Shown here piece after piece: positions 10,779 to 55,014 of a DNA stretch of 64,000 nt. The position numbers were made by a program, and so were the translations under genes. The stretch is from an uncultured virus (IMG/VR IMGVR_UViG_3300006803_000022) (lineage: Duplodnaviria > Heunggongvirae > Uroviricota > Caudoviricetes), in the IMG/VR virus record IMGVR_UViG_3300006803_000022; one strand, given 5' to 3'. Positions within the stretch are counted from its first letter, which is position 1; every line of letters starts with the position of its first letter. A model generated the notes under the pieces. The model saw only the letters and a program-made list of their open reading frames with translations, was not told the origin of the DNA and searched no databases.

Positions 10779-10787
10779 GAGACTTAG

Positions 10788-30356: not shown

Positions 30357-30357
30357 A

Positions 30358-31161
30358 ATGGAATATAGTGACTACGATAGGGACATCCTCATTAGGACTG
30401 TCCTAGGGGAAGCTGGTGGAGAATCGGGGGAAGGCCAACAGGCTGTAGCCCATGTCATTCTCAATAGAGCCAGAGACCCAAGGTGGCCTTCGTCTGTATC
30501 AGAAGTTGCTCTACAACCAAAGCAATTCTCAGCTTGGAATAAAGGATCGGGTGGTAACGCCCACGTTAATATTGGTCCCGGCTCTCCTGCATATGAAGCC
30601 GCTGGTGCACAAGTAGATGCTGTCCTCTCTGGACAATCTGCTGATGTAACTGGCGGAGCTACCCACTACTGGTCACCTGCTGGCATGGAAAAGCATGTAG
30701 CAGACGGTGAGCAGAACTACACAGTACCAAGGTGGGCTGCTGCAGAGACAGAAAGACGAGGTGGTCAGAACGCTCAGATCGGTGGACACATATTTACTGG
30801 TCAGACGGAAGACTATGAGGGGGGCGGTGTTCCTCCACAGTATGTCTATAATCCAGATGGGAAACCAGCTGACGTACCACCACCACAAGCAGAAGCACCA
30901 GAAGCTGAGGTACCCCCTATGGAGATCACAGGAGTTCCTGCTATTGATGGAGCTATCGAAGCAGGAGTAGGACAGGCTAAGGATGCGGCTATAGGGGAGG
31001 CAGTCAAGTACGTACTAGGTACTGGTGGCGGTGCCCCTAGGCTACAAGCCCCACCTATACCGTCTATGCCCACTAGTAGGGTACCTATGCCCAGACCAGT
31101 AAGAGGAATGGGTGATACCATCTTCAGAATCCAAAGACCCAAAGAGAGGGAAGAGAAATGA
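30358..31161 (+). CDS. virion-associated SleB/Hydrolase_2 lytic transglycosylase
   Basis: RTVLGEAGGE, AVAHVILNR, QFSAWN, TGGATHY, IGGHIF. Confidence 0.85.
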   Translation: MEYSDYDRDILIRTVLGEAGGESGEGQQAVAHVILNRARDPRWPSSVSEVALQPKQFSAWNKGSGGNAHVNIGPGSPAYEAAGAQVDAVLSGQSADVTGGATHYWSPAGMEKHVADGEQNYTVPRWAAAETERRGGQNAQIGGHIFTGQTEDYEGGGVPPQYVYNPDGKPADVPPPQAEAPEAEVPPMEITGVPAIDGAIEAGVGQAKDAAIGEAVKYVLGTGGGAPRLQAPPIPSMPTSRVPMPRPVRGMGDTIFRIQRPKEREEK

Positions 31162-33032
31162 CTAACTTTCTAGATGCTATTGGTAACATCTTCCAATTCG
31201 GAGAAGTGCCAATGCGAAAACAACCCTCCATTGTGAAACTAGGAGAGGGTGAAGAGCTTGTCATGGACACAAGTCCTAAGCCAGTTATGACACACGGACC
31301 TAACGGAATGTTCGGTGACACGTACGGAGGTGGCGATATGCCACACCCTGACCAGATGCCACCTACACCAGAAGAGACCATGGCTGCACACAGAAGTGAG
31401 TATGCAATGCCTAATCCTCTGGTGATGCAAGAAGAGCTTGCTGATGCTCAGATGCCGAATGGTCCTGACATGGGTGAATTATCTCCGGGGCTAAATGTAC
31501 CAAGTATATCTCCAGAGCTAAGTGAACCACCTATGCCCGGTATAGATCCTGAACTAAACGAGACAGTTCAAGAGATGGCTGGTAAGGATGGAGTGCCACC
31601 ACCAGAAGGGTACGAAGAGTATCAAGATGAAGATGGTAACACAAAGATCAGACGTATAGAAGGTGTTCCGGCAAATCCACAAGATCCTCATGCTGATGGA
31701 TACGGTATGGCAGCTACTAAGCCTGATGACAAAACACCAGCAGGTCAGAACGGTAAGCGTACTAAGGCTGCTGCTTGGAGCCTAAGAGAGCATGGTTCTC
31801 GTAACCCTGATGCCCTAGAAGCTCCTCTCACAGAGGAAGAGGCAGCAGCAGTTGATGAGGCTGTATCGGGAATGCCAACTGCTCCTGATCCAGATGCTCC
31901 ACCAAATGTAGATACTACACCACCTGCAAGGATCAGAACTCCCGATGGTAATGAAGTAGAGGTAACTCAGGAATCTGTTCAGCAAGTGGCAGAAGAAGAT
32001 CCATCAGGATTCTCTAAAGCCATGGGTTGGGTCACACGTACTTTTGGTGTTACTGGTCAAGACTTGGCTAGATTTGCCGCACTCTACGCTGGTTCTCGTC
32101 TTGCTGGTTATGACCATGAAGGTTCCATGTCTTGGAGCTTCGAGGTAGCTGGTGAAGATCTACAAGAGAGACGTAGGCTACACACCACAATGGCTAACAC
32201 TGGTAAGTACACTCCAGCAAGTATGGAAGAGTACAGAAAGTCTGGTGACTTCTCAAAGCTCAAAGCTGTTACTGATCCTAAAGATCAAGTTAAAGTAGAC
32301 AGGACTTCGCCGAAGCTTACCAGAGATGGTAGCAAGATCGTATATCCCGCCACCCTTCCAAATGGATCTAAGGTTCATGTTGATGCGAATGGTAACCCGT
32401 ACTCTGGCTTCGTAAGGGATCCAGAAGATCCAGAATCTAATCGTGAGGTGTATGAAGAGTATGAGCCAAAGGTTGCATCAATAGCAAAAGAGATTACTGC
32501 TCCCGGTGTAGGTAGAGATGGTAAGAAATTACCTGACTGGTATACAGGAAGTGAGACTGAGGATGCTGCTCTGGCAACAGAGTTCGCACTCGCATGGGCT
32601 ATAGAGGAAGGTATACCACCTAACTCAGCTGCGTTCGGTAACATCGTTGGCGGCGCGTACAAGCAAGCCCGTAGATGGGCGCAAGCTTCTGGTAATACCG
32701 TTGAGTCTATCCAACCATTCCTCGATCAGCAGAAGGTGTACATCACCTCCAGTGACGCATGGGCTGGTGCATTGCAGAACCCTGACGGTAGTAAACTTGA
32801 TGTCGAACAGTTCGGACAAATATCTAACAACCTGATGGGAATTCTGTCACAGGACCCATTGTTCAAGGAAGCTGCTAAGAGAGCAGACAAAGGAACGATG
32901 CTTAGTTGGGCTATGAAAGCTCTATACGCAGACTATGAAGCTCTACCACAAGAGCAGAAGGATGTGTACGCTAGGCAAGGTGGCTTTAAGGGCTTCCTAG
33001 AAGAAGCAACACTTAACCCATTTGATAACTAG
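31158..33032 (+). CDS. internal virion protein
   Basis: 624 aa; Pro/acid-rich N-terminus; in the ejection cluster. Confidence 0.65.
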   Translation: MTNFLDAIGNIFQFGEVPMRKQPSIVKLGEGEELVMDTSPKPVMTHGPNGMFGDTYGGGDMPHPDQMPPTPEETMAAHRSEYAMPNPLVMQEELADAQMPNGPDMGELSPGLNVPSISPELSEPPMPGIDPELNETVQEMAGKDGVPPPEGYEEYQDEDGNTKIRRIEGVPANPQDPHADGYGMAATKPDDKTPAGQNGKRTKAAAWSLREHGSRNPDALEAPLTEEEAAAVDEAVSGMPTAPDPDAPPNVDTTPPARIRTPDGNEVEVTQESVQQVAEEDPSGFSKAMGWVTRTFGVTGQDLARFAALYAGSRLAGYDHEGSMSWSFEVAGEDLQERRRLHTTMANTGKYTPASMEEYRKSGDFSKLKAVTDPKDQVKVDRTSPKLTRDGSKIVYPATLPNGSKVHVDANGNPYSGFVRDPEDPESNREVYEEYEPKVASIAKEITAPGVGRDGKKLPDWYTGSETEDAALATEFALAWAIEEGIPPNSAAFGNIVGGAYKQARRWAQASGNTVESIQPFLDQQKVYITSSDAWAGALQNPDGSKLDVEQFGQISNNLMGILSQDPLFKEAAKRADKGTMLSWAMKALYADYEALPQEQKDVYARQGGFKGFLEEATLNPFDN

Positions 33033-33041
33033 GAGAACGTA

Positions 33042-36000
33042 ATGGAACCCATTATCGACACTACAAAGATTCTGGAGAGTATTCCAGAGACTCGTCTTAA
33101 TGAACGCTACCGCTTCATAGACGGCGATACCCTCCGTGATGAAGATACTGGTAAATCCATTCGAATTCAGGGATATGATGTCCCAGAGACATTCAAGCCA
33201 AGAGATCCCAATAAGGAATTCGACGCAGCAGGTAGTCAGGCTCATGCAGAGCTTGCCCGCCTAGCTCGTGAGAAAGGATTCTCAGAGGTTCAGATCAGTG
33301 GTCAGCAGGATAAGTATAACCGTGAACTCGGTGACCTGTACAACCCACAGACTGGTGAGAGATTCTCACACTACGTCCTAGAGAATGGACTTGGTGACCT
33401 CGCTTGGTTCTCTGACGACAGTCACAAACAGGCTAAGGCCGTTGGTGTATCTAAGCAACTGTATGGGGAGAAGAGACTAGCTGATGAGGATGAGGCTTTC
33501 ACGAACATCATGGCCGCTAACGGTGGTTCATTTGATTGGAAGACTCTAGCCGATACAGAACAAGAGTATGACTCAGACATTCACTACGGTACTGGGATCA
33601 GAAGACTTAATCGTACTATCGACAATAAAGCAATGAAGCAATTCAGTACCTCTTTTGACACTGCCCTTATGGGTGTTGCTGAGAGCTACTACGGATTCAA
33701 GCAGATGGTCGGTGCTGTGATGGGTAATACAGAGATTGAGCGTTCAGGTTCTATCGGAGTAGCTGCCCAACGTGGTAAGATGCAGAACCAACCAAAGGTA
33801 ACAATCGACATCTCAGATGTTGATGGAATAGGTGACTTTGTTGATTACACAGCTAACAATGCTGCTATGTCTATACCCTATATGGCCAACACTATTATGG
33901 CAGCAGGTGCGGGATCAGTGGCTGGAGCCGCTATTGGTGGTCCTGTCGGCGCTGTCGTTGGTGGTGTTGTCGGTTTGGCATCACCCACCGCTATATATGC
34001 TGGTCAGGTGTACAATGGTCAGGATGAGAAGAACGCTAAAGTAGCTTTTACTTCTGGTCTTGCACAAGCTACACTAGATCGACTAGGCCTCAAGGGTATC
34101 ACTACAGGTGGTAAGTCCCTCAAGGGAATCTTGGGTGAAGCAGAAGCTAAACTGATAGCTAAGGGCATGTCTAGGAAAGCAGCACAAGAGAAAGTTGTAG
34201 CTGCATCTAAGAGAGAACTAGCGGGGTTTTTCGATGATGGACTGGCAATGGCTGCTAAACAGCTTACAGCAAGAAATACTACTCGTACTATTCTCAATCG
34301 TGCTGCAAAAGGTCTTGGGTCTGAGGCAGTCACTGAGGCTGCTCAGGAAAGTCTGGCACAAATTGGTGAACAGTACGACGAGGATAACTTTGGGATCTTT
34401 GATCACGACGGTTTCAACGACGAGTTCCTCAATCGCATCACCAACGCAGCGGTTGCTGGTGGTACGCTTGGTGGGGCATTTGGCGGCGCTGGGGGCATTC
34501 GTGAAGTGGGTGGCTGGGCCGATGTTAAACATCAACTAGGTAAACCTAAGGATGCTTTCGAAGATGGTCTAGCACAAAAAGAAGAAGGTGGTGGTACTAT
34601 CGAACAGCGCATGAACCGTATGCAACGTGACGATCAGGACACCAAAGACATCGCTATCCGTACATCAGACTATAGAGACTCTAAGGCCGCTAAGTCTTTC
34701 GACGAGAAGGCTCTGGAGACTATTACTAAAGTTCCATTCCTTTGGCGTGGTATGATGCGGGCTAGAGCAGACAAAGACTCTCAGCACAGATCACCAGCTT
34801 ACAGACTCCTAGTGGGTATGATGGGTGGTCATCTGGGTAGGGTCTTCTCTGGTGCTAACTATGAAGAAGATGCTGCGATGGGTCTGTTGAAGCACAAGAA
34901 GCACGTCGGCATGGAAGATAAGCATTGGTATCAAGGATTCAATGGTATCAGAAATGACGGTAAGGCTCGTGAAGCTTTCAACAAGAAAAGAGAGAAGGTC
35001 AATGCAGACTACCTGAACTGGTTTGAGAACAATCATAATCGTAAGACTGGTGAGATAAATCCAAATGCTGAGTATGATTGGAGTCAGTGGGATGGTGATA
35101 CCATTATGCACAAGGACCTGATTTCTAAGGACGCTATGAAGAACGTCTGGCAAGAACTAGCTGAAGCTCAGAACAACATGTCTCAGAGCATGCTTGCTTC
35201 TCAGAACTTCTGGTGGATGAAGAACACCAAGAAGGGAGAGAAAGCTACTCCTAAGTTTAGGAACTTGAACAACTACCTTATGAAGTTCAAGGCTATGCGT
35301 AAGGATGAGGTTGGTAAGCAAAGGGGTAAGTTTGAGCAACTGATTAGGTCAGAGTATGGCATGTCAGCAAGTCAAGCTACTGAGCTTGCCACACGTATTC
35401 TGGAGAAGGAACCGCTGGATGGTATAGACGACAACGTCTTCAACCTACTTCACCAAGGTGTTCCTGCTACAGCAGCTAAGAAAAGAACTATGGCTCTCTC
35501 AGAGAATCCTAAGTTCAAGGAGTTCTTCCATTCTGATATGTTCCATAACCAACATGAAGCAGCACGTTCAGCTGCTAGGTTCGAGACATATCACAAGATG
35601 ATTGGTAAGGATAACTGGAGGCTGGCTAAGCTACTTGATGATGCACAGAGCGATGGAGTACCCAAGAACATAGTCGATGAACTATCTATGGGTGTTCAGA
35701 GCTACCTAGAGGCTCAGTCAGGTAACTACAAGCGACCTGCTCCCGGCTCATGGGGAGAACGTGCACTAGGAGTACAGAAGTTTGCATTGACTTGGTCTTT
35801 GCTAACCGCTCTACCTCTGTCAGCACTCTCTTCTACTGTTGAGTTAGCTCTTGTAACGAGGGCATTAACCAACGAGCAGATCTTTGGACGTAAAGGATCG
35901 CTATCAGAGATGGGATTGCAACTCTCCAAGATGATTGGGCGTGGAACGATCCGCGTGGGTCACCAGCTTTGGTCTGGACAGGAGTACATCCCTGATAGTC

Positions 36001-36947
36001 TAGAGCAGCGTACGTTGGCTAGGCTAGGTTTCAACCAGCAGGAGACAGGTGCAGCTACCACGGTGGGTGCTACTGAGACTTCTGACTGGGCTAGGAACCG
36101 TATCGATAGGTTCTTTCAGTATAATGGTCTTCAAGGTCTGACCAATACTACTCGTTCTATCAGAGCATCACAATTTACTGATGCTACGAATGCTTATATT
36201 GACACGATCTTTAATGGTGAACCTGACACAGAAGAAGTTAGGTATGCCAGAGAGCAACTGAGAAACTTAGGTCTCGATGTAGATGTCTACATGGATCTGA
36301 TGACTACTCCAGAGTCAGCCATGTCTGAAAAGATGGCTAACGATCTATCGAAGATGGAAGATCTGGCTATGTACACTTGGGTAAACCAAGCTGTCGCATT
36401 ACCGGGTGCAGCTAACCGACCTCTGTTCTACCAAGATCCGAGATTGTTCCTGTTCACACAGTTCAACGGTTACATTGCAACCTTCACTGCTAACCACTTA
36501 CCACAACTCTGGTCGCAATACATTGGCCGTGGCAAGCCATCACTTAAGTTCAACACCTTCGCCATGATGGTCACTATGATCTTCCTTGGTTATGCTTCTC
36601 AGTATTTGAAGGACTGGCTAAAGTATGGAGAACCTACTACATATCTAAACTCCAATGAGAAGTTGAGACGTGCTGTTAACTCTTCGGGCATGCTCGGACA
36701 GGGTGAACGCGCACTTAACTTCATCTGGCCAACCTTTGAGAGACAGGCTAGTAACCCAGTGGAAGCTATAGCAGGTATGGCATTTGATGAGATGCCCGCT
36801 ATGTCTCCACTAGAAAGGATATACAAGTCCGCTGACGCTTTCTACGAAGGCGATACCCAGAAGGGTAAATATAACGCTATGAGAGCGGCACCAGTCATTG
36901 GTCCGTTACAAGGCCTAGCCAAATGGGCTACAGGTGTTGAATATTAA
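33042..36947 (+). CDS. large ejection protein with N-terminal SNase (thermonuclease) domain
   Basis: FIDGDTL..IRIQGYDVPE..DKYNRELG..LENGLG; Gly-rich hydrophobic segments. Confidence 0.75.
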   Translation: MEPIIDTTKILESIPETRLNERYRFIDGDTLRDEDTGKSIRIQGYDVPETFKPRDPNKEFDAAGSQAHAELARLAREKGFSEVQISGQQDKYNRELGDLYNPQTGERFSHYVLENGLGDLAWFSDDSHKQAKAVGVSKQLYGEKRLADEDEAFTNIMAANGGSFDWKTLADTEQEYDSDIHYGTGIRRLNRTIDNKAMKQFSTSFDTALMGVAESYYGFKQMVGAVMGNTEIERSGSIGVAAQRGKMQNQPKVTIDISDVDGIGDFVDYTANNAAMSIPYMANTIMAAGAGSVAGAAIGGPVGAVVGGVVGLASPTAIYAGQVYNGQDEKNAKVAFTSGLAQATLDRLGLKGITTGGKSLKGILGEAEAKLIAKGMSRKAAQEKVVAASKRELAGFFDDGLAMAAKQLTARNTTRTILNRAAKGLGSEAVTEAAQESLAQIGEQYDEDNFGIFDHDGFNDEFLNRITNAAVAGGTLGGAFGGAGGIREVGGWADVKHQLGKPKDAFEDGLAQKEEGGGTIEQRMNRMQRDDQDTKDIAIRTSDYRDSKAAKSFDEKALETITKVPFLWRGMMRARADKDSQHRSPAYRLLVGMMGGHLGRVFSGANYEEDAAMGLLKHKKHVGMEDKHWYQGFNGIRNDGKAREAFNKKREKVNADYLNWFENNHNRKTGEINPNAEYDWSQWDGDTIMHKDLISKDAMKNVWQELAEAQNNMSQSMLASQNFWWMKNTKKGEKATPKFRNLNNYLMKFKAMRKDEVGKQRGKFEQLIRSEYGMSASQATELATRILEKEPLDGIDDNVFNLLHQGVPATAAKKRTMALSENPKFKEFFHSDMFHNQHEAARSAARFETYHKMIGKDNWRLAKLLDDAQSDGVPKNIVDELSMGVQSYLEAQSGNYKRPAPGSWGERALGVQKFALTWSLLTALPLSALSSTVELALVTRALTNEQIFGRKGSLSEMGLQLSKMIGRGTIRVGHQLWSGQEYIPDSLEQRTLARLGFNQQETGAATTVGATETSDWARNRIDRFFQYNGLQGLTNTTRSIRASQFTDATNAYIDTIFNGEPDTEEVRYAREQLRNLGLDVDVYMDLMTTPESAMSEKMANDLSKMEDLAMYTWVNQAVALPGAANRPLFYQDPRLFLFTQFNGYIATFTANHLPQLWSQYIGRGKPSLKFNTFAMMVTMIFLGYASQYLKDWLKYGEPTTYLNSNEKLRRAVNSSGMLGQGERALNFIWPTFERQASNPVEAIAGMAFDEMPAMSPLERIYKSADAFYEGDTQKGKYNAMRAAPVIGPLQGLAKWATGVEY

Positions 36948-36959: not shown

Positions 36960-39900
36960 ATGTCAAAAGTAGGAATGGGTAAAGCTGCATCTGATCTGCA
37001 GGGTGGCCAAACCCCAACCGCTGCTGATTCCACACGCTCAACGCTGTCAGCAGCACTAGGCAATATTGTGGACGGCATGGAGATCCCGAAGGTAGAAGAA
37101 ACACCTTCTGGTCTTCCAAATGCTGATACTTCTATATACTCAGAAGGAGCAGGTTTCACCCCAGAAGGTGACCTGCTTCCTCTGGATGAACGTGCTGCGC
37201 TTGCCGATCAAGGGATGATGAATCCTGAATTTACTGATTGGCAGGATGCTGGCACCCAAAGGTATCAAGCAGAACAACAAGCAAGCGCTCCTATTGAAGC
37301 AATGGTAAGTACCCCAGATAGGGAGAACTCCGTCAATATGATGGCTAGGGCTGAGCACTTTTCTAAGCAGATAGACAAGGCCAGTAATCCAGACGCTTAC
37401 ACGATCAACTGGCACCCCAAATCCAGTGTTCGTGATGACTATGTAAACCTAAACAAGAAGATCGCCAACAGCCAATCACTAGTGGAAAAAACAGAACTCC
37501 TTCAACAAAGGGAGCAGCTAGTAAAGAACCAAGGTGAAACTGAGAACACTCTGTCTCAGACTATCAACACCAAACTGAATGCTGTTGTAGAAGATCCAAA
37601 TACAGGAATGACTTCTATAGATCCTGACTTCGGTCGTGTAGTCTCTATGGCTACTGAGAACTCCTTGGACAATGCGTTCATGGGGAACAAAGACGTAGAC
37701 GAAGATATGGAAAATAGTATGACTGAAGACGAGCGAGGCAATGCCATCGCCGTTGACAAGATCAATCCAGCTGACCTAGCTACTCAGACAGGCCGTCAGA
37801 TCCACAAGTGGTGGGTTGCGGAGAAGAAAGCTAATGGTCAACCTGTTGCAGACACTCTCACAGATCAGGAAGCTAAGGATCTCGGCGCTACAGGACTTAT
37901 GTCCTACGCTGGTGCCTTTCCTGACATGCTTGGTGTAGACTACACTAAGGGTGGTCGTGATGCTGATGGTAATCCTAATGCAGAAGGCATGAGGTTTGTC
38001 CTAAAGGATGAAGGAAGAAGAAGTCTGGAAGCTAACAGAGATACTCGTAAGCGTATCTTCGACACTCGTACAGAGCCAAGCAGAACTGCTAAACCAGCAG
38101 GACTCACAGGTGACAGTGCGAAGGAGAAGCCCGCTATCAGAGGTCGTAAGAACCTCGAATCTGACGACAAGGCCTATGCATCCTTGGAGACAGTAGAGGA
38201 ATCTCTGAGTAACCAGAACAGTGTCAACCACATCGTTGACAACCGTCGTTCCCGTATAGCACTTGCACTGCTACTTCCTTCTCTCTACGGAGAGATAGGT
38301 GACCCTACTAACGTCTTTGGAGACGCATTCGGTATGGGCAGTGTTGCTTATGATACTATTGTTAAAGAGCAGATGACTCTCCACAACATGCCAGAAGACA
38401 AGGCCAACAACTTCGCAATGAATGTTATTCAGAGCAAGAAGAAGGCTATGGCTAGAGAGATACAGGCTATCGCAAAGAACATGGGTGTGCCTAACTACCT
38501 TACCTACGCTATGCAACCACTGACTGGGCGTACTATGGCTCAGCAAACGGACTTCAACCCAACGAGGAAGAAGATCGTACGGTTTGTTACAAGGTCGATG
38601 CACCCTGCGGTGATCAGATCTGCTGCTGGTAGGTTGTACGACAACTACATGAACATCATGGCTCTTTCTTTTGGTGCTGATTCTTTTCTTCCTAGAGGGA
38701 GAATGAGGGATCTTAACAACAACAAACAGAAGTACCGTGACTGGGGTATATCTCTTAGAGACAATCTAGAGACAGCATTCCCAGAGGCTATGTTCTTGCA
38801 AGGCACTGAGGCTATCAGAGAAGGACAACAAGTCCCAGACCCTAGCCAGCAGCTTCTACTCTTTCAGAGGGGACTAGCTCCTGATCTTATGGAGTACCTG
38901 ACCAAGAAGGGTGAAGACGCCCCTATGGCTATGGATGCCCTGATAGACTTTGCGAACTTCTGGGATAACATGGATGCAGGTAAGCCCCATAAGACACACG
39001 TCAATGCTTATATTGATGGTAAGACTAATGGTATTGCGAACCAAGCTATCATGTTGGGTATCCGTAAGCTTGCCTTCAAGGTAGGACTACTAAGAAGTGA
39101 TGGTTCCGAGACAGCTATTGAAGGTGGCGACGTACGTGACCGTATGGCTGAGCTTATTACCGCTAGACTGGACGAGGGTACGATCCCTGTGATACCTATG
39201 AACAGGTTGCAGGATGGTAAAGATGGTATTCTACTCAAGGTACTTAAGAAACTAGGTGCTGACCGTACGATCAACAAACAGATTTCCATGATCTTCCCAT
39301 ACGGGAAAGAGATTACTGGGATGAAGGGAGAGATCGCTAAGCTAATCCCTGAGATTCGTTCTAAGGATAAGTTGTTAGATCAGAACATGAGTGAACTTGA
39401 GGCCGCTGGTATCAAGACCAGTGAGATCGTGGCAGCAGCACATGACAACGTCGTGTACTCGCTCTTCGACATCTTTGGTGAGGATACCTTCAAGACAAGA
39501 TCAATCATGAGACACGTAGGTTTCCTACACGCTCTCACAGATTCCCTGTTTTCAATCAGAGGACCAGTAGGTCATCGTATTAACATGGGTGATCGTAGGA
39601 TTGATCCTAGTACCACTAAGACTACCTCTGTCTCGGTCAAGAATACGGCTCAGGATCAGAACAAGAACATGACTATGAAGCTGAATGTGTCAGATCAGTA
39701 TCTTTCCTCGGCTTCCAATAAGCCTAGCGATCTAGATCCTCGCGGAGACGTGGGTGGTCATGCTCGTGGACAGGCTCAGGTCATCCCCACACAGTCCTAC
39801 GACGCTGCTGTGGTACTACGTTCTTCTTCTGGTAAGACTTGGGATAAGTTGAAGGCTTCACACCCTGCTGCTGAACCCTATTTCTTACAGATCTATGACG

Positions 39901-40571
39901 CCTACAAGGTAGACGTACATAACTTTGATGTACTTTCTGAGGAGGTCAACAACAACTGGTTTGACCTAACGACGAAAGACTACTCATTTCTTGAAGAGGC
40001 TCAGAAAGAATTGGACACGTTGTCTAACTCCTTCGAAGCTCGAATGAAGGCTGACCCAACTCGTGAGTATTCCCTCGAAGGCGATGGAACATTCTCTTAC
40101 CTCGGTAGGATTATGGATCCAGAAGCTAAGAGAAATACTGATGGGAAGGTGATCTATACTCGTAAGGCTGCTAAGGTTTTCGCTGCGTCTATATTTCCTA
40201 TGGACCCTGACGGAAACTTTATGGGTCGAACGGATTATAAGGCCAACCCTAAGAGCCGTAAGACACCTGCAATCATCATGGAAGAGTACAATAACTTCCT
40301 GAATGATCAAGCTGGTGCATTGCAAACTCTTATGACAAAGGCTATCAACGGTGCGGGTAAAAAGAATCTGAGAGTAGGTGAAATTCCTAGCTCAATTAAT
40401 TCTATGGAAGCTCTCGCAGTTTTTGAAGCAGTGACAAGATTCTCCCACAGTAAAGCTCGTCTAGGCTCCCTTGTACAAAGGACCAACAAGAACCGTGCAG
40501 CGCTGAGAGCAGAAACTATTGCTCAGAAAATCCGAACAGGCTTTGGCGCGTTGCAATTCTGGGCGCATTGA
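36960..40571 (+). CDS. putative virion-encapsidated single-subunit RNA polymerase (N4 vRNAP-like)
   Basis: LTGR; motif A YIDGKTNG; motif B RTINKQISMIFPYG; PTQSYDA; motif C LQIYDAY. Confidence 0.8.
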   Translation: MSKVGMGKAASDLQGGQTPTAADSTRSTLSAALGNIVDGMEIPKVEETPSGLPNADTSIYSEGAGFTPEGDLLPLDERAALADQGMMNPEFTDWQDAGTQRYQAEQQASAPIEAMVSTPDRENSVNMMARAEHFSKQIDKASNPDAYTINWHPKSSVRDDYVNLNKKIANSQSLVEKTELLQQREQLVKNQGETENTLSQTINTKLNAVVEDPNTGMTSIDPDFGRVVSMATENSLDNAFMGNKDVDEDMENSMTEDERGNAIAVDKINPADLATQTGRQIHKWWVAEKKANGQPVADTLTDQEAKDLGATGLMSYAGAFPDMLGVDYTKGGRDADGNPNAEGMRFVLKDEGRRSLEANRDTRKRIFDTRTEPSRTAKPAGLTGDSAKEKPAIRGRKNLESDDKAYASLETVEESLSNQNSVNHIVDNRRSRIALALLLPSLYGEIGDPTNVFGDAFGMGSVAYDTIVKEQMTLHNMPEDKANNFAMNVIQSKKKAMAREIQAIAKNMGVPNYLTYAMQPLTGRTMAQQTDFNPTRKKIVRFVTRSMHPAVIRSAAGRLYDNYMNIMALSFGADSFLPRGRMRDLNNNKQKYRDWGISLRDNLETAFPEAMFLQGTEAIREGQQVPDPSQQLLLFQRGLAPDLMEYLTKKGEDAPMAMDALIDFANFWDNMDAGKPHKTHVNAYIDGKTNGIANQAIMLGIRKLAFKVGLLRSDGSETAIEGGDVRDRMAELITARLDEGTIPVIPMNRLQDGKDGILLKVLKKLGADRTINKQISMIFPYGKEITGMKGEIAKLIPEIRSKDKLLDQNMSELEAAGIKTSEIVAAAHDNVVYSLFDIFGEDTFKTRSIMRHVGFLHALTDSLFSIRGPVGHRINMGDRRIDPSTTKTTSVSVKNTAQDQNKNMTMKLNVSDQYLSSASNKPSDLDPRGDVGGHARGQAQVIPTQSYDAAVVLRSSSGKTWDKLKASHPAAEPYFLQIYDAYKVDVHNFDVLSEEVNNNWFDLTTKDYSFLEEAQKELDTLSNSFEARMKADPTREYSLEGDGTFSYLGRIMDPEAKRNTDGKVIYTRKAAKVFAASIFPMDPDGNFMGRTDYKANPKSRKTPAIIMEEYNNFLNDQAGALQTLMTKAINGAGKKNLRVGEIPSSINSMEALAVFEAVTRFSHSKARLGSLVQRTNKNRAALRAETIAQKIRTGFGALQFWAH

Positions 40572-40610
40572 ATCGGCTGTCGATGTCGGTTGCCATAAGA
40601 GTGTAATGAG

Positions 40611-40667
40611 AAAAAAAAGAGACCACTACCTATACCCATAAGGGCGTAAGTAGTGGTCTTTTTTATT
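40611..40667. terminator. bidirectional terminator between the converging arms
   Basis: A8-G-AGACCACTAC...GTAGTGGTCT-TTTTT. Confidence 0.85.
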
Positions 40668-40891
40668 TAAGGTTTCGCTCGTTTTCCGATGTTACTAGCT
40701 ACGTCTGCCAGTTCACGTTCAGGCTTTGCAGCTTCTGCCATGACACGCTTAGCGACAGCGTTCAGTTCCCTCAGGTCCTCTGGACGAGGCTGACGGCCTT
40801 TGCCAACAGTAAATCCTTGTTCTAATCCAGAAGTAAAAGCTCCTAACATAAGAGCATCCAGAGTCATCTCTGCTTTCTTCTCATCAATCAT
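40667..40891 (-). CDS. hypothetical protein
   Basis: 74-aa ORF ending at the terminator. Confidence 0.6.
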   Translation of the reverse strand: MIDEKKAEMTLDALMLGAFTSGLEQGFTVGKGRQPRPEDLRELNAVAKRVMAEAAKPERELADVASNIGKRAKP

Positions 40892-41180
40892 TAAGCATAC
40901 CCTTAGAGGCCAACAGACCGTTGATCTCTCCTAGCTTAAGGTTACGAATAGAGAGTGCTTTAGTATGTGCTTCACTCTCTCGTAGACCATTCTCTACGAA
41001 TGATGCTACGTTGTCCTCGTATGCACGATCAAGCATGAACTCGTTGATACCGGGCGTGTGTGCCAAACGGTGAGGCATGTTGAATGCTTCCACGTAGTCC
41101 ATGTCGTTTACATCTAGTCCTTTCAGGGCTGAGACATTGTAGTTAATTCGATCATCATGATCCATTTTCTCGTTATTCAT
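40884..41180 (-). CDS. hypothetical protein
   Basis: 98-aa ORF overlapping the next gene. Confidence 0.6.
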   Translation of the reverse strand: MNNEKMDHDDRINYNVSALKGLDVNDMDYVEAFNMPHRLAHTPGINEFMLDRAYEDNVASFVENGLRESEAHTKALSIRNLKLGEINGLLASKGMLND

Positions 41181-41284
41181 CTTTATTCTCTCTAGTTTTG
41201 TGGGCTGACACTACGTCAGCTGTCCACTGAGCGGCTATAGCTATCAATTATGATAGACCATAGCCTACAGAGGCTACAGGCTCT

Positions 41285-43666
41285 CTATGCGAAGAAATAG
41301 TCTGAGTCTCTTACTTGGGCAATCTCTAGATCACCTCGTGTTGGCTGCTCTACGGTGAGTCCTTTGGTGTCACTCAGTATAGCTTCCTCGATATAGTCAT
41401 AGAAATTGTCCTCATCATACATCACAATGAAGCACTCTTTGGTAAGATCTATAAGCTCGGCTACGTCAGAGGCGTGTGTTGCGAATGCATCGTGTACTGC
41501 TGCGAAGGCTCCATCCCAGTTATCAATAATGATAGCCATGTGTGAGCCGTCCATAGAGTGTGTGAAGTTAGGACTGATGCCACTCATGAAGCCACGCATG
41601 TTTGGTATTTCTGTCTTCTCATAAGCGACATGGTTGATTCGTCCAACCCCATTGATCGTTCCCTTGCACTTAATCGACCTCTGGATATAGTTCTCGTATA
41701 TAACGTGGAAACCAGAGGGTGTAGTCCATCTGATGTCTCTAGCACCATTACCTTCAATGAGGGTTGATGTGTAGTCATCCAGTGAGAGTACGAGGCCGTT
41801 GAGTTCTTGAAGGTCTTCATCTGTCTTATTCCTTTTGTACTTCAGGGTTTTGATCTTGGCCTTCAGAGCTTTGAGGCTCTTGTTTCCAATCTTCCCGTGT
41901 ATGAAATACGCGTAAGTTCCAATCTCGTACGCTGCCAGCTTCTGTAAGAAGGACATAGTCTCTAGTGGTCCCGGGCATACTTTATTAATAGCAGTGATAA
42001 GATTATGTGACAACTTGTTGCAGTCATCCACATTGATCCCATAGGTTTCAGTGAAGTCCTCTTGGTAGCAATCGGCATACATGTTGGTAGCCATTGTCTT
42101 CTGACCTGCTGAGTACGCTCTGGTCATGCTTCCACGCTTACTAATTCCTTTCCTGATGTGCTTCATAGGCATCTGCTTCTCGGCAAACCATTCAGGCATT
42201 AGGTGTATCAGTTCCTTAGCAGTAGATACATAGAAATCCTTTTGTATTTCAGACGGTACGAGGCCCACCAGTGAACCAGTTTTAGAATCCTTTGACATCG
42301 CACCAAGGTGCTGCCATCCGTTGTTTGAACCATCAATCTGGATTGGGAGTCTTGAGTTGAATCCTGTGGGATCAGTAAGATACCCGCACCACTCCACACA
42401 GCATGCATAGAAACTAACAGGTTTCTCGGCTGATAGATCGATTTCTTCTTCTTCAACATATCTAATAATCCTATCTAGGTTGTTCTCTGTCCAGTTGGCT
42501 CTGTCGTTGAGAGTCATCTTGTCCACAGATATAGTATCAAGACCTTCTTCTTTTAGGTACTCGACGTAGTCTGTTTCACACCATGCAGGTATAGCTGAGA
42601 CATGGTAGGATTCATTGAATGAGACTGCTGTATGTATGGCCAGCCACTTACGACCTTCGTCAGTGATTGGTTTCCCTTCTTTGAATTCGATGATACCACG
42701 TGCAGCATCTGTCCCTTGGAAATTGAAGAATGACTCGACATAGTAGAACCTACCTCTGTAATCCAACTCTATCGTCTGATAGAATTCTGGCTCACCTCTT
42801 AGGAGTTGGGCCTTTTGCATTGTGTATTCGAAGGCAGTCTTCTTGGACTGCTTCTTGAGTGCAACCAGTTTCAGGTTCCACATTGTTGCTTCTTTGACGT
42901 ACTTGTCTTTCTTCTTATCAAGATCAGTAGAGGGTTTACCTTTAGCTTTGTTCTTTGCCATACGCCATGCGTAGTAGGCATCATCCATAGCCTTCTTGTT
43001 ACCTTCTTTTGGTACCTCTACTTTACCTTCCGTGATAAAGAGATTCTTGTTGCTCTCCACTGCTCTGAGTACTGGAATGTTTATCCTGAGCGGGATCCCC
43101 TGCAGCTTATCCACAGCGGAGATGTGTTGTCCATCTCTGACGATCTCCCATTCTTCTCTTGTGTACTTGTCTCTCTTAAGCACTCTACGATTTGGAAATC
43201 TAGGTGGTTCGAACGTAGTGCCTCGTAGATCCTTCTTAGTTCTGACCAGAGGGTATTCAGAAATGTCTGACCATCTGGTCTCAAGGTGTACCACATATGG
43301 AGCATCCTTATTGAATTCGGAGAAGGCAGGATCTCTGTACACATTGATGTAGTTGAGTGCGTACAAGGCTTCTACGAATAGATCACCTAACCTTACCTTC
43401 TGGTCGAACGGTGCATCATCTACTCCCATCATGAGAAGGATGCGGTTACCGATACTTGTAGAGATCTGTGTTAGCTTAGCCATACCGGGGATATCGCTAC
43501 GCTGCATACAGGCCATGATGTTCTGTATCGAGGAGTTGATGTAATCGTCAAGGTCATTGTCTGACTTGTCGAAACGTAGTATCGTCGCACCAGTACCCCC
43601 TGACTTTCCAGACAGAGGACTGATACGATCTATCTTCTTTTGAATGTAGTCCTTTATGTCTTTCAT
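41285..43666 (-). CDS. T7-like monomeric DNA-directed RNA polymerase
   Basis: DYRGRFY, QIDGSNNGWQH, KRGSMTRAY, SPNFTHSMDGSH, AVHDAF. Confidence 0.95.
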   Translation of the reverse strand: MKDIKDYIQKKIDRISPLSGKSGGTGATILRFDKSDNDLDDYINSSIQNIMACMQRSDIPGMAKLTQISTSIGNRILLMMGVDDAPFDQKVRLGDLFVEALYALNYINVYRDPAFSEFNKDAPYVVHLETRWSDISEYPLVRTKKDLRGTTFEPPRFPNRRVLKRDKYTREEWEIVRDGQHISAVDKLQGIPLRINIPVLRAVESNKNLFITEGKVEVPKEGNKKAMDDAYYAWRMAKNKAKGKPSTDLDKKKDKYVKEATMWNLKLVALKKQSKKTAFEYTMQKAQLLRGEPEFYQTIELDYRGRFYYVESFFNFQGTDAARGIIEFKEGKPITDEGRKWLAIHTAVSFNESYHVSAIPAWCETDYVEYLKEEGLDTISVDKMTLNDRANWTENNLDRIIRYVEEEEIDLSAEKPVSFYACCVEWCGYLTDPTGFNSRLPIQIDGSNNGWQHLGAMSKDSKTGSLVGLVPSEIQKDFYVSTAKELIHLMPEWFAEKQMPMKHIRKGISKRGSMTRAYSAGQKTMATNMYADCYQEDFTETYGINVDDCNKLSHNLITAINKVCPGPLETMSFLQKLAAYEIGTYAYFIHGKIGNKSLKALKAKIKTLKYKRNKTDEDLQELNGLVLSLDDYTSTLIEGNGARDIRWTTPSGFHVIYENYIQRSIKCKGTINGVGRINHVAYEKTEIPNMRGFMSGISPNFTHSMDGSHMAIIIDNWDGAFAAVHDAFATHASDVAELIDLTKECFIVMYDEDNFYDYIEEAILSDTKGLTVEQPTRGDLEIAQVRDSDYFFA

Positions 43667-43667
43667 T

Positions 43668-43853
43668 CTATTCCTTTGGGTATCTTAGTTCGTTAACCTC
43701 ATTCTCGGACAGTCCATAGATGTACTGCTTTCTTCCTTTTCCGAAAGTCCATGTACCGAATCCATCTTTGAACCATGCCACAAACGTGTTCTCATCTACT
43801 CTGGCTACTATGTTAGCAACCACAAGCTTATCTCTGATTGCATCTGTGATCAT
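43668..43853 (-). CDS. hypothetical protein
   Basis: ATGA-coupled start at 43853 (MITDAIRD). Confidence 0.55.
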   Translation of the reverse strand: MITDAIRDKLVVANIVARVDENTFVAWFKDGFGTWTFGKGRKQYIYGLSENEVNELRYPKE

Positions 43854-44350
43854 TTCAGCACTTCCTCTATGTGTAGTGGTGTGTATCCTGTCTTCTCTAC
43901 ACACACATTCACATGACGTTTGGTGGGACTAAGCTTCTCGTGTATATGTCCATGCACATTGAACTCTACCTTGCGGATAGAATCCTCATGCACTGGTACA
44001 TGTGTCAGCAGCATGTTGTGTTCCTTGAAGAGCCTCCACATCATTACCTTCTGGAAGAACCCACCACAGGCCATGAATCTAACATCATCATGGTTACCCA
44101 CAACAAGTCTCTTAGATCCCATGAGGCGTGGCCATGTCTTCTTGAACCACTCCTTGTCTCCAAAGAATACATCTCCAAGATGGTAGACTTTATCTCCCGG
44201 TCGGACCACAGCGTTCCAGTTCTGAATGATTGTCTCATTCATCTCTTGGACATTGTCGAAGGCTCTTACCTTATCACCCTTCTCATCCATGAAGTTTAGC
44301 ATGTTTGAATGATTAAGGTGTGTATCGCTTATGATCCATATGTTACTCAT
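43850..44350 (-). CDS. calcineurin-like metallophosphoesterase
   Basis: SDTH, LGD, GNHD, THVP, HGHIH. Confidence 0.9.
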   Translation of the reverse strand: MSNIWIISDTHLNHSNMLNFMDEKGDKVRAFDNVQEMNETIIQNWNAVVRPGDKVYHLGDVFFGDKEWFKKTWPRLMGSKRLVVGNHDDVRFMACGGFFQKVMMWRLFKEHNMLLTHVPVHEDSIRKVEFNVHGHIHEKLSPTKRHVNVCVEKTGYTPLHIEEVLK

Positions 44351-46146
44351 AGACCCATCCTTTCTTTCATCTTGTCGATTGATACAGCATCTGCTGCTTT
44401 GAATAGACTCTCTACACTTGCTACGGCTGTAGCAGATATAGCTTCTAACCTTCTTGTTGTCTTGTTGAAGAATGAAGAACCAGCTTCACCAGTATTACCA
44501 GTGAATCGAGCTTTCAATACTCGGAATCTGATAGTGTTCTTACTACGTTCATCCTCTGCGATCATGTTCCTAGCAAATGCAACGATATCGAATGATACCT
44601 GCTTGATAGATCCTGATCCTTTGATGTCGTCTAGTGATGCCATGTGACCTTCTTCGAAGCTCTTGCCGCCAGCACCAGTCTTTCTCAGGTGTGAGATGAC
44701 ACCTAGCCACACAGGGAACTGCTTGACTAACTTGAGTAGGTCACTCATCATTTTGTCTACTGCTTCATTCCCAGTAAATCCCTCGTTGCCTTCGGAGACA
44801 GCGATAGTAATGTGGTCAAGTATAATGTGAGTACAACCCATTGCAGATAGTGCGCGGAGTTTGTTAATGAGACTTTCATCTCCAACAGATCCTTGGTGAT
44901 CGAGCACAATGACTCTCTCAGATGCGAATAGAGTTTCATAGGCTTCACGTTGTCGTACTTCATCATTCTTACTTACTTCATCCTCTTGGAAGTTCGTGAG
45001 CATAGCCATCTCAATGAACTTCTCTACAGTCTCACCTACATCTTCTTCAAGGCTTACGATACCTAGCTTAGTATCTGGTTGAGCGATGATGTGTAGCATG
45101 ATCTCTTTTGTAACAGTTGACTTACCAGAACCAGTACCAGAGGTGAATAGAACAATCTCATTCAACCTCATACCCTTTAGGAGTGTGTTCAGTCCTGATA
45201 GGCAGTCTGGGTATGGTAGGCATACCTTGTCCTTACGGTCCTTGAATCTGTTCCAGAGTTCTTCTCCCTTCACAAATCCAGCTGGCATGAACGGTTGTGC
45301 ATTGAAGATCTGATTGATTATGTACTCAGGCTTCTCTGCTCGTAGGGCGTCATTGGCATCCTTGTACTTAGTACATCCTACGATGACAGCCTTGGGTCCG
45401 ATAGCCTTAGCATACCGCTCCATAGAGTCCAACCCTGCGCCTGTCTTATCACGGTCAGGCCACAGGATTACTTTCTCGAAGGACATGATCCAATCGAGGT
45501 TGTTCATGAAGATTTGATCTACGTTCACATTGAACAGGGATACTACAGGGAATCGCTTACCCCCATACTTTAGGTGGTATGCTTGCTGTACTGCACAACA
45601 GTCATCTTCTCCCTCAGTGATTACCAGCATTCTACCACCAGCCTCGAACAAGTTCTGTCCGAATAGCTGGCAGTCTTTTCTATTCATGATCTGGGTGTCA
45701 CCCTTCATGTAGAATGCTTTATTCTGGTCCTCAGAACCATCATGCTTTTCTTTGTAAGCATTCAGCTTCCCGTTACGATACCAAGGGTAGTATCTTGCAC
45801 CCGGTGTACCATCCTCTTTTATTCTTGAATGAACACCATAGAACTCATAGATGTAGTTGTAGATGCCTCTCGGCTTTGATCCACGTATCGGCAGTGTCTG
45901 GATCTGCTCTAGCTTCTCAATGATTTCTTCGAAGTCTACTTCTTCTATCTCACGGCTTTTGAAGCCGCCCGGTGTGTCGCCATAGAACCATGTCTTGTTA
46001 CAGGCTCCATAGCAGGTGTAGTGATCGTCATAGTACCCCATGCTATCTGAGGAGCCACAAGTTTCACACTCATGTCTCCCCCTCAGTAGCTGCGGGTTCT
46101 TTATTGTCGGGTTGTCCATTATTTTTATTGTCTCGGCAATTATCAT
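44347..46146 (-). CDS. T7 gp4-like primase-helicase
   Basis: CxxC Zn finger, TEGEDD TOPRIM, KDAND, SGTGSGKST, ILDHIT, KGSGSIKQ. Confidence 0.95.
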   Translation of the reverse strand: MIIAETIKIMDNPTIKNPQLLRGRHECETCGSSDSMGYYDDHYTCYGACNKTWFYGDTPGGFKSREIEEVDFEEIIEKLEQIQTLPIRGSKPRGIYNYIYEFYGVHSRIKEDGTPGARYYPWYRNGKLNAYKEKHDGSEDQNKAFYMKGDTQIMNRKDCQLFGQNLFEAGGRMLVITEGEDDCCAVQQAYHLKYGGKRFPVVSLFNVNVDQIFMNNLDWIMSFEKVILWPDRDKTGAGLDSMERYAKAIGPKAVIVGCTKYKDANDALRAEKPEYIINQIFNAQPFMPAGFVKGEELWNRFKDRKDKVCLPYPDCLSGLNTLLKGMRLNEIVLFTSGTGSGKSTVTKEIMLHIIAQPDTKLGIVSLEEDVGETVEKFIEMAMLTNFQEDEVSKNDEVRQREAYETLFASERVIVLDHQGSVGDESLINKLRALSAMGCTHIILDHITIAVSEGNEGFTGNEAVDKMMSDLLKLVKQFPVWLGVISHLRKTGAGGKSFEEGHMASLDDIKGSGSIKQVSFDIVAFARNMIAEDERSKNTIRFRVLKARFTGNTGEAGSSFFNKTTRRLEAISATAVASVESLFKAADAVSIDKMKERMGL

Positions 46147-46684
46147 TATGCCAACGGGCGAGATTAGCTATATCACATTCAAATCCACAGTGTGCACATG
46201 GCAACCGTGGGAGATTGTAGGCTCTCTCTCTGAGCTTATCCCTTGTACTCTGGGCTACGACCTTCGGTGGTAGGAACTTGATTGCTCCTATCGCCTTGTT
46301 GTAATACTTCCTATTCCCATCTGGTAGCACTTCTGTGAGTACATCCATATCAAACTGAAGTTTTGTCTCTGTGTAGGTCAGTTCAGCTTGTGTTTCACAT
46401 TCACATAGAACGATGAACTCAAACTTATCCTTTCCAGTCTTAGAGATGTCTTCGTTGAGGTCAGCAGAAGAACCAGTATAGTCCCTCCACTTCATCTCTG
46501 TGAACTTCTTTCGCTTCCTCTTATACCCTTTAAGTGGTGGTAGAGTAGTTAATGAGAAGTACTTCTTCTTTCCTATGTATGCTCTCTGAGTTTCTTTATT
46601 AAGGATGAGGTATACAAATCCCTGATGTGTCTTAGGACTCATCTCTCTTTCGAAAGACCAGTGTCCATTATCAAACTGGCTCAT
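46070..46684 (-). CDS. GIY-YIG (Seg-like) endonuclease with C-terminal Zn finger
   Basis: GFVYLI...YIGKK, WRDYTGSS, CAHC...WH..NC. Confidence 0.8.
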   Translation of the reverse strand: MSQFDNGHWSFEREMSPKTHQGFVYLILNKETQRAYIGKKKYFSLTTLPPLKGYKRKRKKFTEMKWRDYTGSSADLNEDISKTGKDKFEFIVLCECETQAELTYTETKLQFDMDVLTEVLPDGNRKYYNKAIGAIKFLPPKVVAQSTRDKLRERAYNLPRLPCAHCGFECDIANLARWHNDNCRDNKNNGQPDNKEPAATEGET

Positions 46685-47414
46685 CTTTCAGCCAAGTCGT
46701 GTATTGGAAGGTGTCATCAAGCCACCGTCGCATATAAATCAGGTTGCAGTTCTTATACAATTTGTCACTCCATAGTGTACCATACTCAGGCTTGTACAAC
46801 TCGATGACTCTTTCCATCATCCGTTTCTTACTAAGTCCTAGTAGCTCTTTCTTTGCTTTCACAGGACCGATGCCTCTGATACCAAAGATATTATCAGTAG
46901 TGTCACCAGTCAGAAGTTGACAGGCAAATCTGTAGTCTCCTTCTTTCTGGTCTATAAACTTCCACTTCTTCTCTTCACTCAGTGGCTTATCTTTAGTGCC
47001 ACCATAGTTGAAGTGAGTGCCGGGGAACTGTAGTAGGTCTTTATCGATACCTGCTATGATCCATGGGATGCCTTCTTGTTGAGCTTCATAAGCCCAAGCA
47101 ATCACCTGATCGTCAGCTTCCCATCCATGACAACTGATTGCACCTAGTTCCAGAGCGTACTCTGCTAGCATGTTCAGTCGTCTCTTTTGTTCTGGCTCAG
47201 GGGCTGGCCTGTTACCCTTATAGTCTGGGTCGATATCAAATCGGAAGTTACCGATACCCTTGATAGCTACGAAATCTTTGTCCGAGAACGTCTGGACTCT
47301 GATGTAATCCAGACGCTCCCTGTATCGATCCCGCATTGTTTTGTCACTGACCTTACCGTAGGTTGCCCTGTACAGTAATGAGTCTGCGTCTATAAATACG
47401 TGTCTATCGTCCAT
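46671..47414 (-). CDS. 5'-3' exonuclease (T7 gp6-like)
   Basis: IDADSL, YKGNR, EADD, DKDL, GDTTDNIFGI.GIG. Confidence 0.9.
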   Translation of the reverse strand: MDDRHVFIDADSLLYRATYGKVSDKTMRDRYRERLDYIRVQTFSDKDFVAIKGIGNFRFDIDPDYKGNRPAPEPEQKRRLNMLAEYALELGAISCHGWEADDQVIAWAYEAQQEGIPWIIAGIDKDLLQFPGTHFNYGGTKDKPLSEEKKWKFIDQKEGDYRFACQLLTGDTTDNIFGIRGIGPVKAKKELLGLSKKRMMERVIELYKPEYGTLWSDKLYKNCNLIYMRRWLDDTFQYTTWLKDEPV

Positions 47415-47422
47415 GATTTCCT

Positions 47423-47626
47423 TTAGTTCAAATTACGTTGCTTGTATTCAGCGTATTGGTAGTCTTTGAAGATTGTCCTAGCACCCTCTGGGTGTGTTAA
47501 GATCAGTGTCGAGTTACTCATCAATTCGATGTCATCTACTGCAGTGTACTCTACTGACCGTTCTGAATCTACGTGTACTACCACGTACTCATACTTGCTT
47601 TTTTCTGTTCTACTACTAGTGAACAT
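47423..47626 (-). CDS. hypothetical protein
   Basis: 67-aa ORF overlapping the pol end. Confidence 0.5.
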   Translation of the reverse strand: MFTSSRTEKSKYEYVVVHVDSERSVEYTAVDDIELMSNSTLILTHPEGARTIFKDYQYAEYKQRNLN

Positions 47627-49466: not shown

Positions 49467-49581
49467 CTTTTCTGAATACCTCCACTAGTAGTTTGTGTGG
49501 TTCAAATACCATGATGAACATATAGGCCGCAAATATCATAGATACGATTATGTGCGTCCCTACTTTGTCTTCTGATTCCAC
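49456..49581 (-). CDS. 41-aa membrane protein (absent from ORF track)
   Basis: GTG start after AAGGA; MESEDKVGTHIIVSMIFAAYMFIMVFEPH... Confidence 0.45.
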   Translation of the reverse strand: MESEDKVGTHIIVSMIFAAYMFIMVFEPHKLLVEVFRKDED

Positions 49582-49715
49582 TTGCTTTCCTTTCTATTGG
49601 AGCAAGGTGGGCATGTATCACATTCATCCTCAACGTCTGATAGACGGAGACGACTGTATACTTTCCCACAGGTTGTACACGCGTAGTGCACAAATCCATT
49701 TAGTTTTAATGTCAT
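49560..49715 (-). CDS. 51-aa Zn-ribbon protein (absent from ORF track)
   Basis: YACTTCGKVY...CPPCS; fills the gap between RNR and pol. Confidence 0.55.
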   Translation of the reverse strand: MTLKLNGFVHYACTTCGKVYSRLRLSDVEDECDTCPPCSNRKESKWNQKTK

Positions 49716-49725
49716 ATTGTTGGAT

Positions 49726-49747
49726 GGGCCAGCCCGTAGGCCAGCCC
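49726..49747 (-). other. cUACGg-capped hairpin after the RNR gene
   Basis: GGGCUGGCC-UACG-GGCUGGCCC on the minus strand; no U tract. Confidence 0.6.
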
Positions 49748-49755
49748 TTCACTCT

Positions 49756-54494: not shown

Positions 54495-54515
54495 TAGCTA
54501 TGTCCCCTTATAGGG
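54495..54515 (+). promoter_or_regulatory. putative phage RNAP late promoter
   Basis: Exact copy of 2056-2076, upstream of the lone + gene. Confidence 0.75.
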
Positions 54516-54566
54516 CGCAAGCCCCAATCAGAGTGTAATATGCATAATATACTAGGAGAACGTAAT

Positions 54567-54980: not shown

Positions 54981-54982
54981 TG

Positions 54983-55014
54983 AGAGCGACCCTATATGGG
55001 TCGTTCTTTTTTTA
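54983..55014 (+). terminator. intrinsic terminator
   Basis: AGAGCGACCC-tatat-GGGTCGTTCT-T6. Confidence 0.85.

Follow-up and report, generated by a model that had tools for sequence, protein, structure and literature searches.

Why a podophage should carry two single-subunit RNA polymerase (RNAP) genes that converge on one another is the question raised by the uncultured virus IMGVR_UViG_3300006803_000022, of which a stretch of 64,000 nucleotides was analysed (termed here the window, to the whole of which all coordinates refer). The first gene specifies a protein of 1203 amino acids (aa) and closes an arm of virion genes on the plus strand (2307-40571), and the second specifies a T7-type RNAP of 793 aa within an arm of replication genes on the minus strand, which ends at 40667. 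The window is most of one podophage genome; the longest contig with the 1203-aa protein measures 66,434 bases, so that approximately 2.4 kb of the genome lies beyond it. As an overall explanation we favour, with moderate confidence, a two-polymerase cascade in which an enzyme injected from the virion would be followed by a newly made phage RNAP. Of its elements, the analysis shows the presence of both genes, the fold and intact motifs of their products, the loss of cysteine from one of them, their fixed pairing and repeated promoter-like motifs at conserved sites; the packaging and the division of labour are inferred.

Two single-subunit polymerases and their fixed pairing

The 1203-aa protein had no sequence match in Pfam, PHROGs, PDB sequences or annotated phages, and a profile search with its family returned at least 315 clusters at 50% identity. 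In an alignment of 118 sequences (the window protein, two of its close relatives and 115 of the 150 listed hits, from which fragments and a small number of long sequences had been removed), residues R524, D686, K773, Y781 and D980, representing the catalytic motifs D/TxxGR, A, B and C, were invariant in all 118 members at identities of 19-69%. A structure model of residues 181-1203, built from 60 alignment rows, reached a predicted local distance difference test score (pLDDT) of 90.1 and a predicted template modelling score (pTM) of 0.89. The top matches of a fold search with this model were exclusively single-subunit polymerases with the right-hand Pol A-type fold, namely T7 RNAP (Z 26.1, root-mean-square deviation 4.5, 540 residues aligned), mitochondrial RNAP (Z 25.3) and the mini-virion RNAP (mini-vRNAP) of phage N4 (Z 23.6, root-mean-square deviation 6.1, 739 residues aligned); the longest alignments came from N4 chains (722-743), although the top Z score did not. 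Because the model matches only such polymerases and the catalytic residues are invariant, the 1203-aa protein is, as judged from its predicted structure, a polymerase of the single-subunit superfamily. Three motif details of the family point towards N4: motif A reads DGxTNG..N, the GR motif is followed by NP..K.VR, and an aromatic residue precedes the motif C aspartate where T7 has a histidine.

The 793-aa protein is one unsplit chain, recognised by the Pfam RNA_pol profile (E 5e-55) and by similarity to T7 RNAP (E 2e-33), with intact motifs (DYRGR, D445, K510/Y518 and H725-D726) and ten cysteines, and its gene occupies the distal end of the arm with primase, exonuclease and PolA; the initial annotation is thus confirmed on both counts, as it is in placing the two RNAP genes across two small open reading frames (ORFs). 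Among the annotated-phage matches listed, its sole near relative is gp30 of the cultured Roseobacter phage CRP-7 (39% identity), the others being local matches at 23-31%. In a quick RNAP tree of 25 family rows and seven references, the family and CRP-7 gp30 fell together on one side of a long branch with a support of 100; the family was closer to the T7-like references than to N4 gp16, with N4 gp16 and KSY1 gp014 both being long branches.

Of 93 confirmed IMG/VR loci the best 80 were retained, and a converging homologue of the 793-aa enzyme was present in all 80. These loci are redundant, as 62 hold both full ORFs and 28 of the 62 are distinct. Across the 28 distinct loci, identity in one enzyme rises with identity in the other (rho 0.69, a value reached in none of 2000 permutations), which kinship alone would yield. 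The median identity is 26% for the 1203-aa family and 45% for its partner RNAP, indicating that the former evolves much faster. A search with the 793-aa protein also gave two loci (L009 and L010) that enter the reductase genes and end short of the position of the second polymerase, and partner-less members of the group may exist. In CRP-7, the place matching that of the 1203-aa gene is occupied by gp33, which is annotated as "hypothetical". This protein contains motif-like stretches and gave a remote, one-way profile match to the family (E 6e-6 among 17 proteins, the best of 170 shuffles scoring 0.4), while the reverse search, BLAST and profile-profile comparison between gp33 and the family were all non-significant.

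A cysteine-free block and two classes of promoter-like motif

Seven consecutive ORFs (28721-40571), of which the 1203-aa gene is the last, encode proteins with no cysteine at all. Within this block, the 267-aa cell-wall hydrolase matches Hydrolase_2 and the 1301-aa protein matches the virion protein phrog_6958. Cysteine loss extends to the whole 1203-aa family (six cysteines in 138,960 residues) and, within the same loci, to 59 distinct family ORFs (five in 71,195 residues) and 46 homologues of the 1301-aa protein (three in 61,966 residues), whereas 63 partner RNAPs contain 657 cysteines in 47,213 residues and none of them is cysteine-free. N4 gp50, gp51 and gp52 likewise have no cysteine, and Schitoviridae ejection proteins are described as being marked by cysteine loss (PMC11445570, in the part available). 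We infer that the seven-ORF block is an ejection-protein block, and, on the basis of gene position and composition, the 1203-aa enzyme is very likely to be packaged in the particle. That the protein might instead be a structural ejection component retaining a polymerase fold as a relic, or an enzyme left out of the particle, is highly improbable: the rapid divergence of the family relative to its partner and the barely alignable gp33 would suit a relic fold, yet the catalytic-motif residues are invariant even between distant members and the near-total cysteine loss spans the family.

The second line of evidence concerns candidate promoters. A 16-base motif followed by (T)AGG, here called class L, is present at four sites in the window (Table 1), each of them on the late strand, where 0.54 would be expected, and none of 100 shuffles reached four; the T7-style promoter motifs previously annotated ahead of late genes are thereby borne out. 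Exact copies before TerL and at equivalent sites were found in relatives of the clade with 74-75% RNAP identity, and a search of ten fragments located the motif in four, with a chance match in one unrelated contig (L014). More distant relatives carry their own versions with a TATAG-like end, in nine of ten near-complete genomes (G009 being the exception) and in CRP-7, positioned before TerL, in the middle of the tail genes, ahead of the TerS-like gene and, in many cases, ahead of the portal gene. In all nine genomes and CRP-7, one to three copies are directed towards the replication arm; G011 has a single copy so oriented, which precedes the TerS-like gene. A de novo intergenic scan, the mask of which hid even the known motif in the window, found no motif in G009. 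CRP-7 has five copies of an 18-base class L-like motif (L001:2027, 7148, 14765 and 38279, and 57229 of the record), three of which face the replication arm, one of them directly before gp30, and two the late genes. The CRP-7 record lists no promoters for these five copies.

Judged by sequence, class L sites are putative promoters, and they are likely to be read by the 793-aa enzyme. Since class L sites in relatives also point into the replication arm, this enzyme probably serves middle as well as late genes. A different allocation, in which the 1203-aa enzyme reads class L and the 793-aa enzyme transcribes middle genes or makes replication primers (similar to the use of N4 RNAPII for middle genes), is quite improbable. 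It would accommodate the TATAG-like end common to class L and some hairpin motifs, as well as the class L-like site directly before gp30 in CRP-7, which an injected enzyme could use. Nevertheless, class L resembles the T7 promoter and the 793-aa protein is the T7-like enzyme of the two; an injected enzyme acting on class L would switch on the late genes immediately; and a second motif class is available for the second enzyme in five relatives.

This second class (class E) consists of hairpins resembling the early promoters of N4, the published anatomy of which served for comparison (PMC4496689, in the part available). The scan, defined as stems closed by C-GNA-G, recovers the N4 sites at 96, 565 and 4554. 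In the near-complete relative G003, four copies of the 13-base hairpin found at N4 position 96 (N4 P1) are present at the head of the early arm, and their loop, like that of N4, lies on the template strand. Related hairpins were detected in G002 (two), G010 (two), G011 (three, one with a paired stem change) and G008 (four). Class E hairpins are confined to the early arm or its head and are found in five of the ten near-complete relatives, all five of which also carry class L. In G008 (11720-11766) and G011 (668-714), a class L site and a hairpin form a tandem pair ahead of the TerS-like gene, which in these genomes lies on the early strand and not antisense to it. A hairpin of the window at 49725-49755, after the reductase gene and kept in L003 and L004, was considered as a promoter and rejected, as it fits an RNA tetraloop hairpin instead; on the transcribed strand its loop reads UACG in the window and UUCG in L003 and L004.

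In the cascade that we favour, the 1203-aa enzyme, the final member of the cysteine-free block, would be packaged in the virion, would enter the cell with the DNA, which it may help to pull in, and would transcribe the arm ending in the 793-aa gene. Such early transcription by the injected enzyme is almost as likely as the assignment of class L to the T7-type RNAP. The newly made 793-aa enzyme would then read double-stranded class L promoters to express the genes for the head and for ejection as well as the TerS-like gene, and class L would additionally drive the replication arm in most relatives; the last late gene would supply the virion polymerase for the next round, and the shared terminator would keep the arms apart.

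Several observations weigh against this reading. No class E hairpin was found in the window (approximately 2.4 kb of the genome being outside it), in G004-G007, in G009 or in CRP-7, and searches for hairpin promoters in the window and its closest relatives gave no repeated class; for the window, early transcription by the virion enzyme is argued from relatives and from the analogy with N4. Where hairpins are present, the spacing from hairpin to plausible start differs from that of N4, and palindromic sites of this kind could be binding sites of a protein dimer. None of the four class L sites of the window faces the replication arm, all of them facing late genes. Regarding the polymerase itself, the Z scores fail to place N4 above T7 and the fold does not separate ancestries, the family profiles do not detect N4 gp50/vRNAP, and the large N- and C-terminal domains of the N4 enzyme are lacking. 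The vRNAP-like label initially given to the 1203-aa gene holds for the single-subunit polymerase fold and the cysteine-free position, while descent from the N4 enzyme is plausible in view of the motifs and is not settled by profile or fold. Of the injected-early, phage-late scheme proposed for this locus, the virion location and the late phage promoters are supported, whereas the 793-aa enzyme would act on middle genes too and the window yielded no early promoter.

The same absence of a candidate virion-enzyme promoter, from the window and six of the 11 comparison genomes, would be expected if the injected enzyme were mainly a motor for DNA entry or made a few first transcripts, with host RNAP transcribing the early arm up to the 793-aa gene in phiKMV-like fashion and the 793-aa enzyme acting late. 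That the 793-aa gene comes last in a 20-kb stretch of replication arm with terminator-like hairpins is compatible with this, and the T7 ejectosome offers a precedent for host RNAP as a motor (PMC13434306, in the part available). However, neither the head of the arm (7 sigma-70-like sites, against 4.9 +/- 2.2) nor the arm (20, against 34.7 +/- 6.1) is enriched in such sites, although the host may use other promoters, and the hairpins of G008 and G011 recur along the arm, beyond its head. We consider this possibility unlikely.

Genome layout and relatives of the window

The features of the window are collected in Table 1. The replication block stands upstream of the T7-type RNAP gene. The inverted repeat between the arms, which agrees with the bidirectional terminator annotated previously, was not flagged by a simple terminator scan; by eye, junction hairpins with A and T runs are also seen in L003, L004, L006, L007 and L008 and in CRP-7. 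Of the two small ORFs, the 74-aa one was matched in three of the 80 loci only, these being the closest relatives and one of them the same virus, and the 98-aa one has homologues in 34 of the 80 loci and in CRP-7 (gp32). The 98-aa ORF gave no usable family match in the searches, and its product is a possible polymerase cofactor. Two relatives (L003:12911-14038 and L007:7818-9020) carry an additional ORF, 375-400 aa long and similar to a ligase by eye, that is inserted between terminator and small ORFs. The ORF at 54567-54980, kept in all ten near-complete relatives, is designated TerS-like, a name assigned to it without a family match.

Table 1. Coordinates of the polymerase genes, associated genes and candidate regulatory sites in the window
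Feature	Position	Strand	Remarks
Class L	1840..1860	+	head of late arm
Class L	2056..2076	+	before TerL; kept before TerL in L012 and L013
Head module	2561..11630	+	TerL, SU10-type portal, scaffold, SU10-type major capsid protein, adaptor
Class L, one mismatch	28066..28086	+	before ejection block, within a small ORF; equivalent site in G013
Six cysteine-free ORFs	28745..36947	+	ahead of polymerase gene; 258-266, 129, 148, 267 (cell-wall hydrolase), 624 and 1301 aa
1203-aa ORF	36960..40571	+	predicted single-subunit RNA polymerase; last gene of virion arm, stand-alone
Likely bidirectional terminator	40611..40668	.	between arms; inverted repeat, A run before, T run after
74-aa ORF	40667..40891	-	continues arm of 793-aa gene
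98-aa ORF	40884..41180	-	conserved; 3' of T7-type RNAP gene, in its arm
793-aa ORF	41285..43666	-	monomeric T7-type RNA polymerase, CRP-7 gp30 clade
Replication block	43850..51669	-	phosphoesterase, primase-helicase, GIY-YIG nuclease, exonuclease, PolA, class II ribonucleotide reductase
TerS-like unit	54495..55008	+	class L site (54495) at its head, ORF 54567-54980, terminator 54982-55008; separate late unit inside replication arm

Ten near-complete relatives of 46-61 kb keep the whole layout, as does CRP-7. The genome had been taken for a mixture of N4-like, T7-like and Kuravirus-like modules; given that its layout is kept across the ten relatives and CRP-7, it is a stable lineage rather than a newly assembled mosaic. 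Its portal, capsid and adaptor are SU10-type, which makes the head one of the LUZ24/phiEco32 type, with the capsid protein being closest to that of CRP-7 (46%) and next mostly to those of LUZ24-type phages (approximately 33%). The rIIA/rIIB pair of the window (56387-59978), which had been counted among the N4-like components, had no match in the ten near-complete relatives or CRP-7, which suggests gain or retention in the sub-lineage of the window.

Further features include a run of tail/fibre genes at 12139-25361 with 144-base repeats at 17523-18203, as well as a gene for tRNA-Arg(TCT) at 61962-62037, the same tRNA-Arg being reported in CRP-7 (PMC6918029, in the part available). The non-coding region 811-1560 contains short repeats (three of 11 bases, 1520-1562) and a palindrome near 1355, and is a probable genome end. 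Several related contigs end 280-810 bases ahead of the first class L site, and in one DNA run a break at 1357/1359 with higher depth beyond gives a weak hint of a terminal repeat. Contigs from four sequencing runs were assessed, of a kind that could not reveal transcript starts, strand or genome ends. Those of an RNA run span parts of the late arm and may contain DNA. The runs best holding the sequence are labelled freshwater metagenome.

Significance and comparison with known systems

No paper describing the 1203-aa family as a second polymerase was found in a literature search from which subscription journals were largely absent. The pairing is widespread, apparently undescribed in the papers searched, and a variant of the N4 scheme. 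A giant virion RNAP is considered a hallmark of Schitoviridae, and solved structures are mentioned for only two packaged phage RNAPs (PMC13434306, in the part available); a compact enzyme of the stand-alone kind, found in an unrelated lineage of at least 315 clusters at 50% identity and overlooked by Pfam, PHROGs and BLAST, would widen this picture and bears on the origin of the N4 enzyme and the purpose of its extra 2,300 residues. More tentatively, this may be a widespread group of 55-66 kb podophages independent of host RNAP throughout, relying on an injected enzyme of approximately 130 kDa acting on hairpins and then on a T7-type enzyme acting on duplex promoters for middle and late genes, a generalisation that we regard as doubtful. 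On that reading, the free enzyme beside its distinct ejection protein of 1,300 aa would correspond, in unfused form, to the 3,500-aa enzyme of N4, and would show a route by which an ejectosome acquired a polymerase. The cultured member CRP-7 makes the reading directly testable, and the 1203- and 793-aa families represent a source of new polymerase-promoter pairs.

With N4 and other Schitoviridae the window shares a cysteine-free polymerase closing the ejection block and the possession of two phage polymerases. The N4 mini-vRNAP (gp50 residues 998-2103; PDB 2PO4 and 3C46) has the same fold across the whole of the 1203-aa model, and some relatives of the window carry N4-like hairpins. In contrast, the polymerases of the 59 distinct family ORFs are stand-alone proteins of 1,070-1,471 aa as compared to 2,842-3,820 aa for Schitoviridae vRNAPs (PMC10654107, in the part available), the second enzyme is a single chain with T7-style promoters rather than the RNAPII heterodimer gp15/gp16, and the head is of the SU10/LUZ24 type and not composed of an N4-type capsid and portal. 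Furthermore, late genes are assigned to host RNAP in N4 (PMC4496689, in the part available), while the CRP-7-type group appears to hand them to its own second enzyme. In the putative virion step the window would operate as N4 does, but in polymerase size, form of RNAPII and head type it differs from Schitoviridae and is not a member of that family.

A monomeric RNAP and T7-style promoters are features shared with phiKMV- and T7-like phages (Autographiviridae in records). In phiKMV-like phages the RNAP gene follows the replication genes. The window is set apart from T7-like phages by an RNAP at 23-31% identity in local matches and on a separate branch, by converging arms and by a second polymerase; in the quick tree with seven references its RNAP lies outside the T7-like radiation, and its genes are not on one strand, so that it is not one of them. 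The LUZ24/phiEco32 structural lineage (Bruynoghevirus and Kuravirus; PMC10386132, in the part available) shares the SU10-type portal, capsid and adaptor with the window. Identity of the major capsid protein to that of LUZ24 is approximately 33%. LUZ24 and phiEco32 are not known to have an RNAP of their own.

Lactococcus phage KSY1 (Chopinvirus) resembles the window in having two single-chain T7-like RNAP genes, gp014 and gp033 (PMC11476376, in the part available). Its gp033 has no cysteine in 820 aa, whereas gp014 has ten, and is a weak fold match of the 1203-aa model; gp033 may also be a virion enzyme. The gp033 gene corresponds to L131:15987-18449, and the KSY1 record puts a phage-RNAP promoter at 736, before gp014. 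Unlike the window, KSY1 has a Gram-positive host, a phi29-related virion, genes on one strand and no T7-like replisome, and the comparison made here supports no shared lineage of the two.

The groups of StenR_269, AltAD45, CRP-822-type phages and CHUG phages were considered and set aside as other groups (PMC10747016, PMC12629253 and PMC3821669, each in the part available). The closest known system is CRP-7 (MK613349), which is the best cultured match for both the RNAP and the major capsid protein and which has a primase gene, an RNAP gene, two small ORFs and a converging gene for a cysteine-free protein of 1235 aa in the same order as the window. Identity to the window is 39% for the RNAP, 46% for the major capsid protein and 55% for TerL, and 17 of the 22 window proteins tested match CRP-7 in similar order, although CRP-7 has no rIIA/rIIB pair. 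By shared core genes and layout, the window belongs to the CRP-7-type group; the new lineage envisaged at first is therefore one described in 2019, for which the available part of that description names a single RNAP, that of CRP-7 (PMC6918029), and the second polymerase is what the present analysis would add to it.

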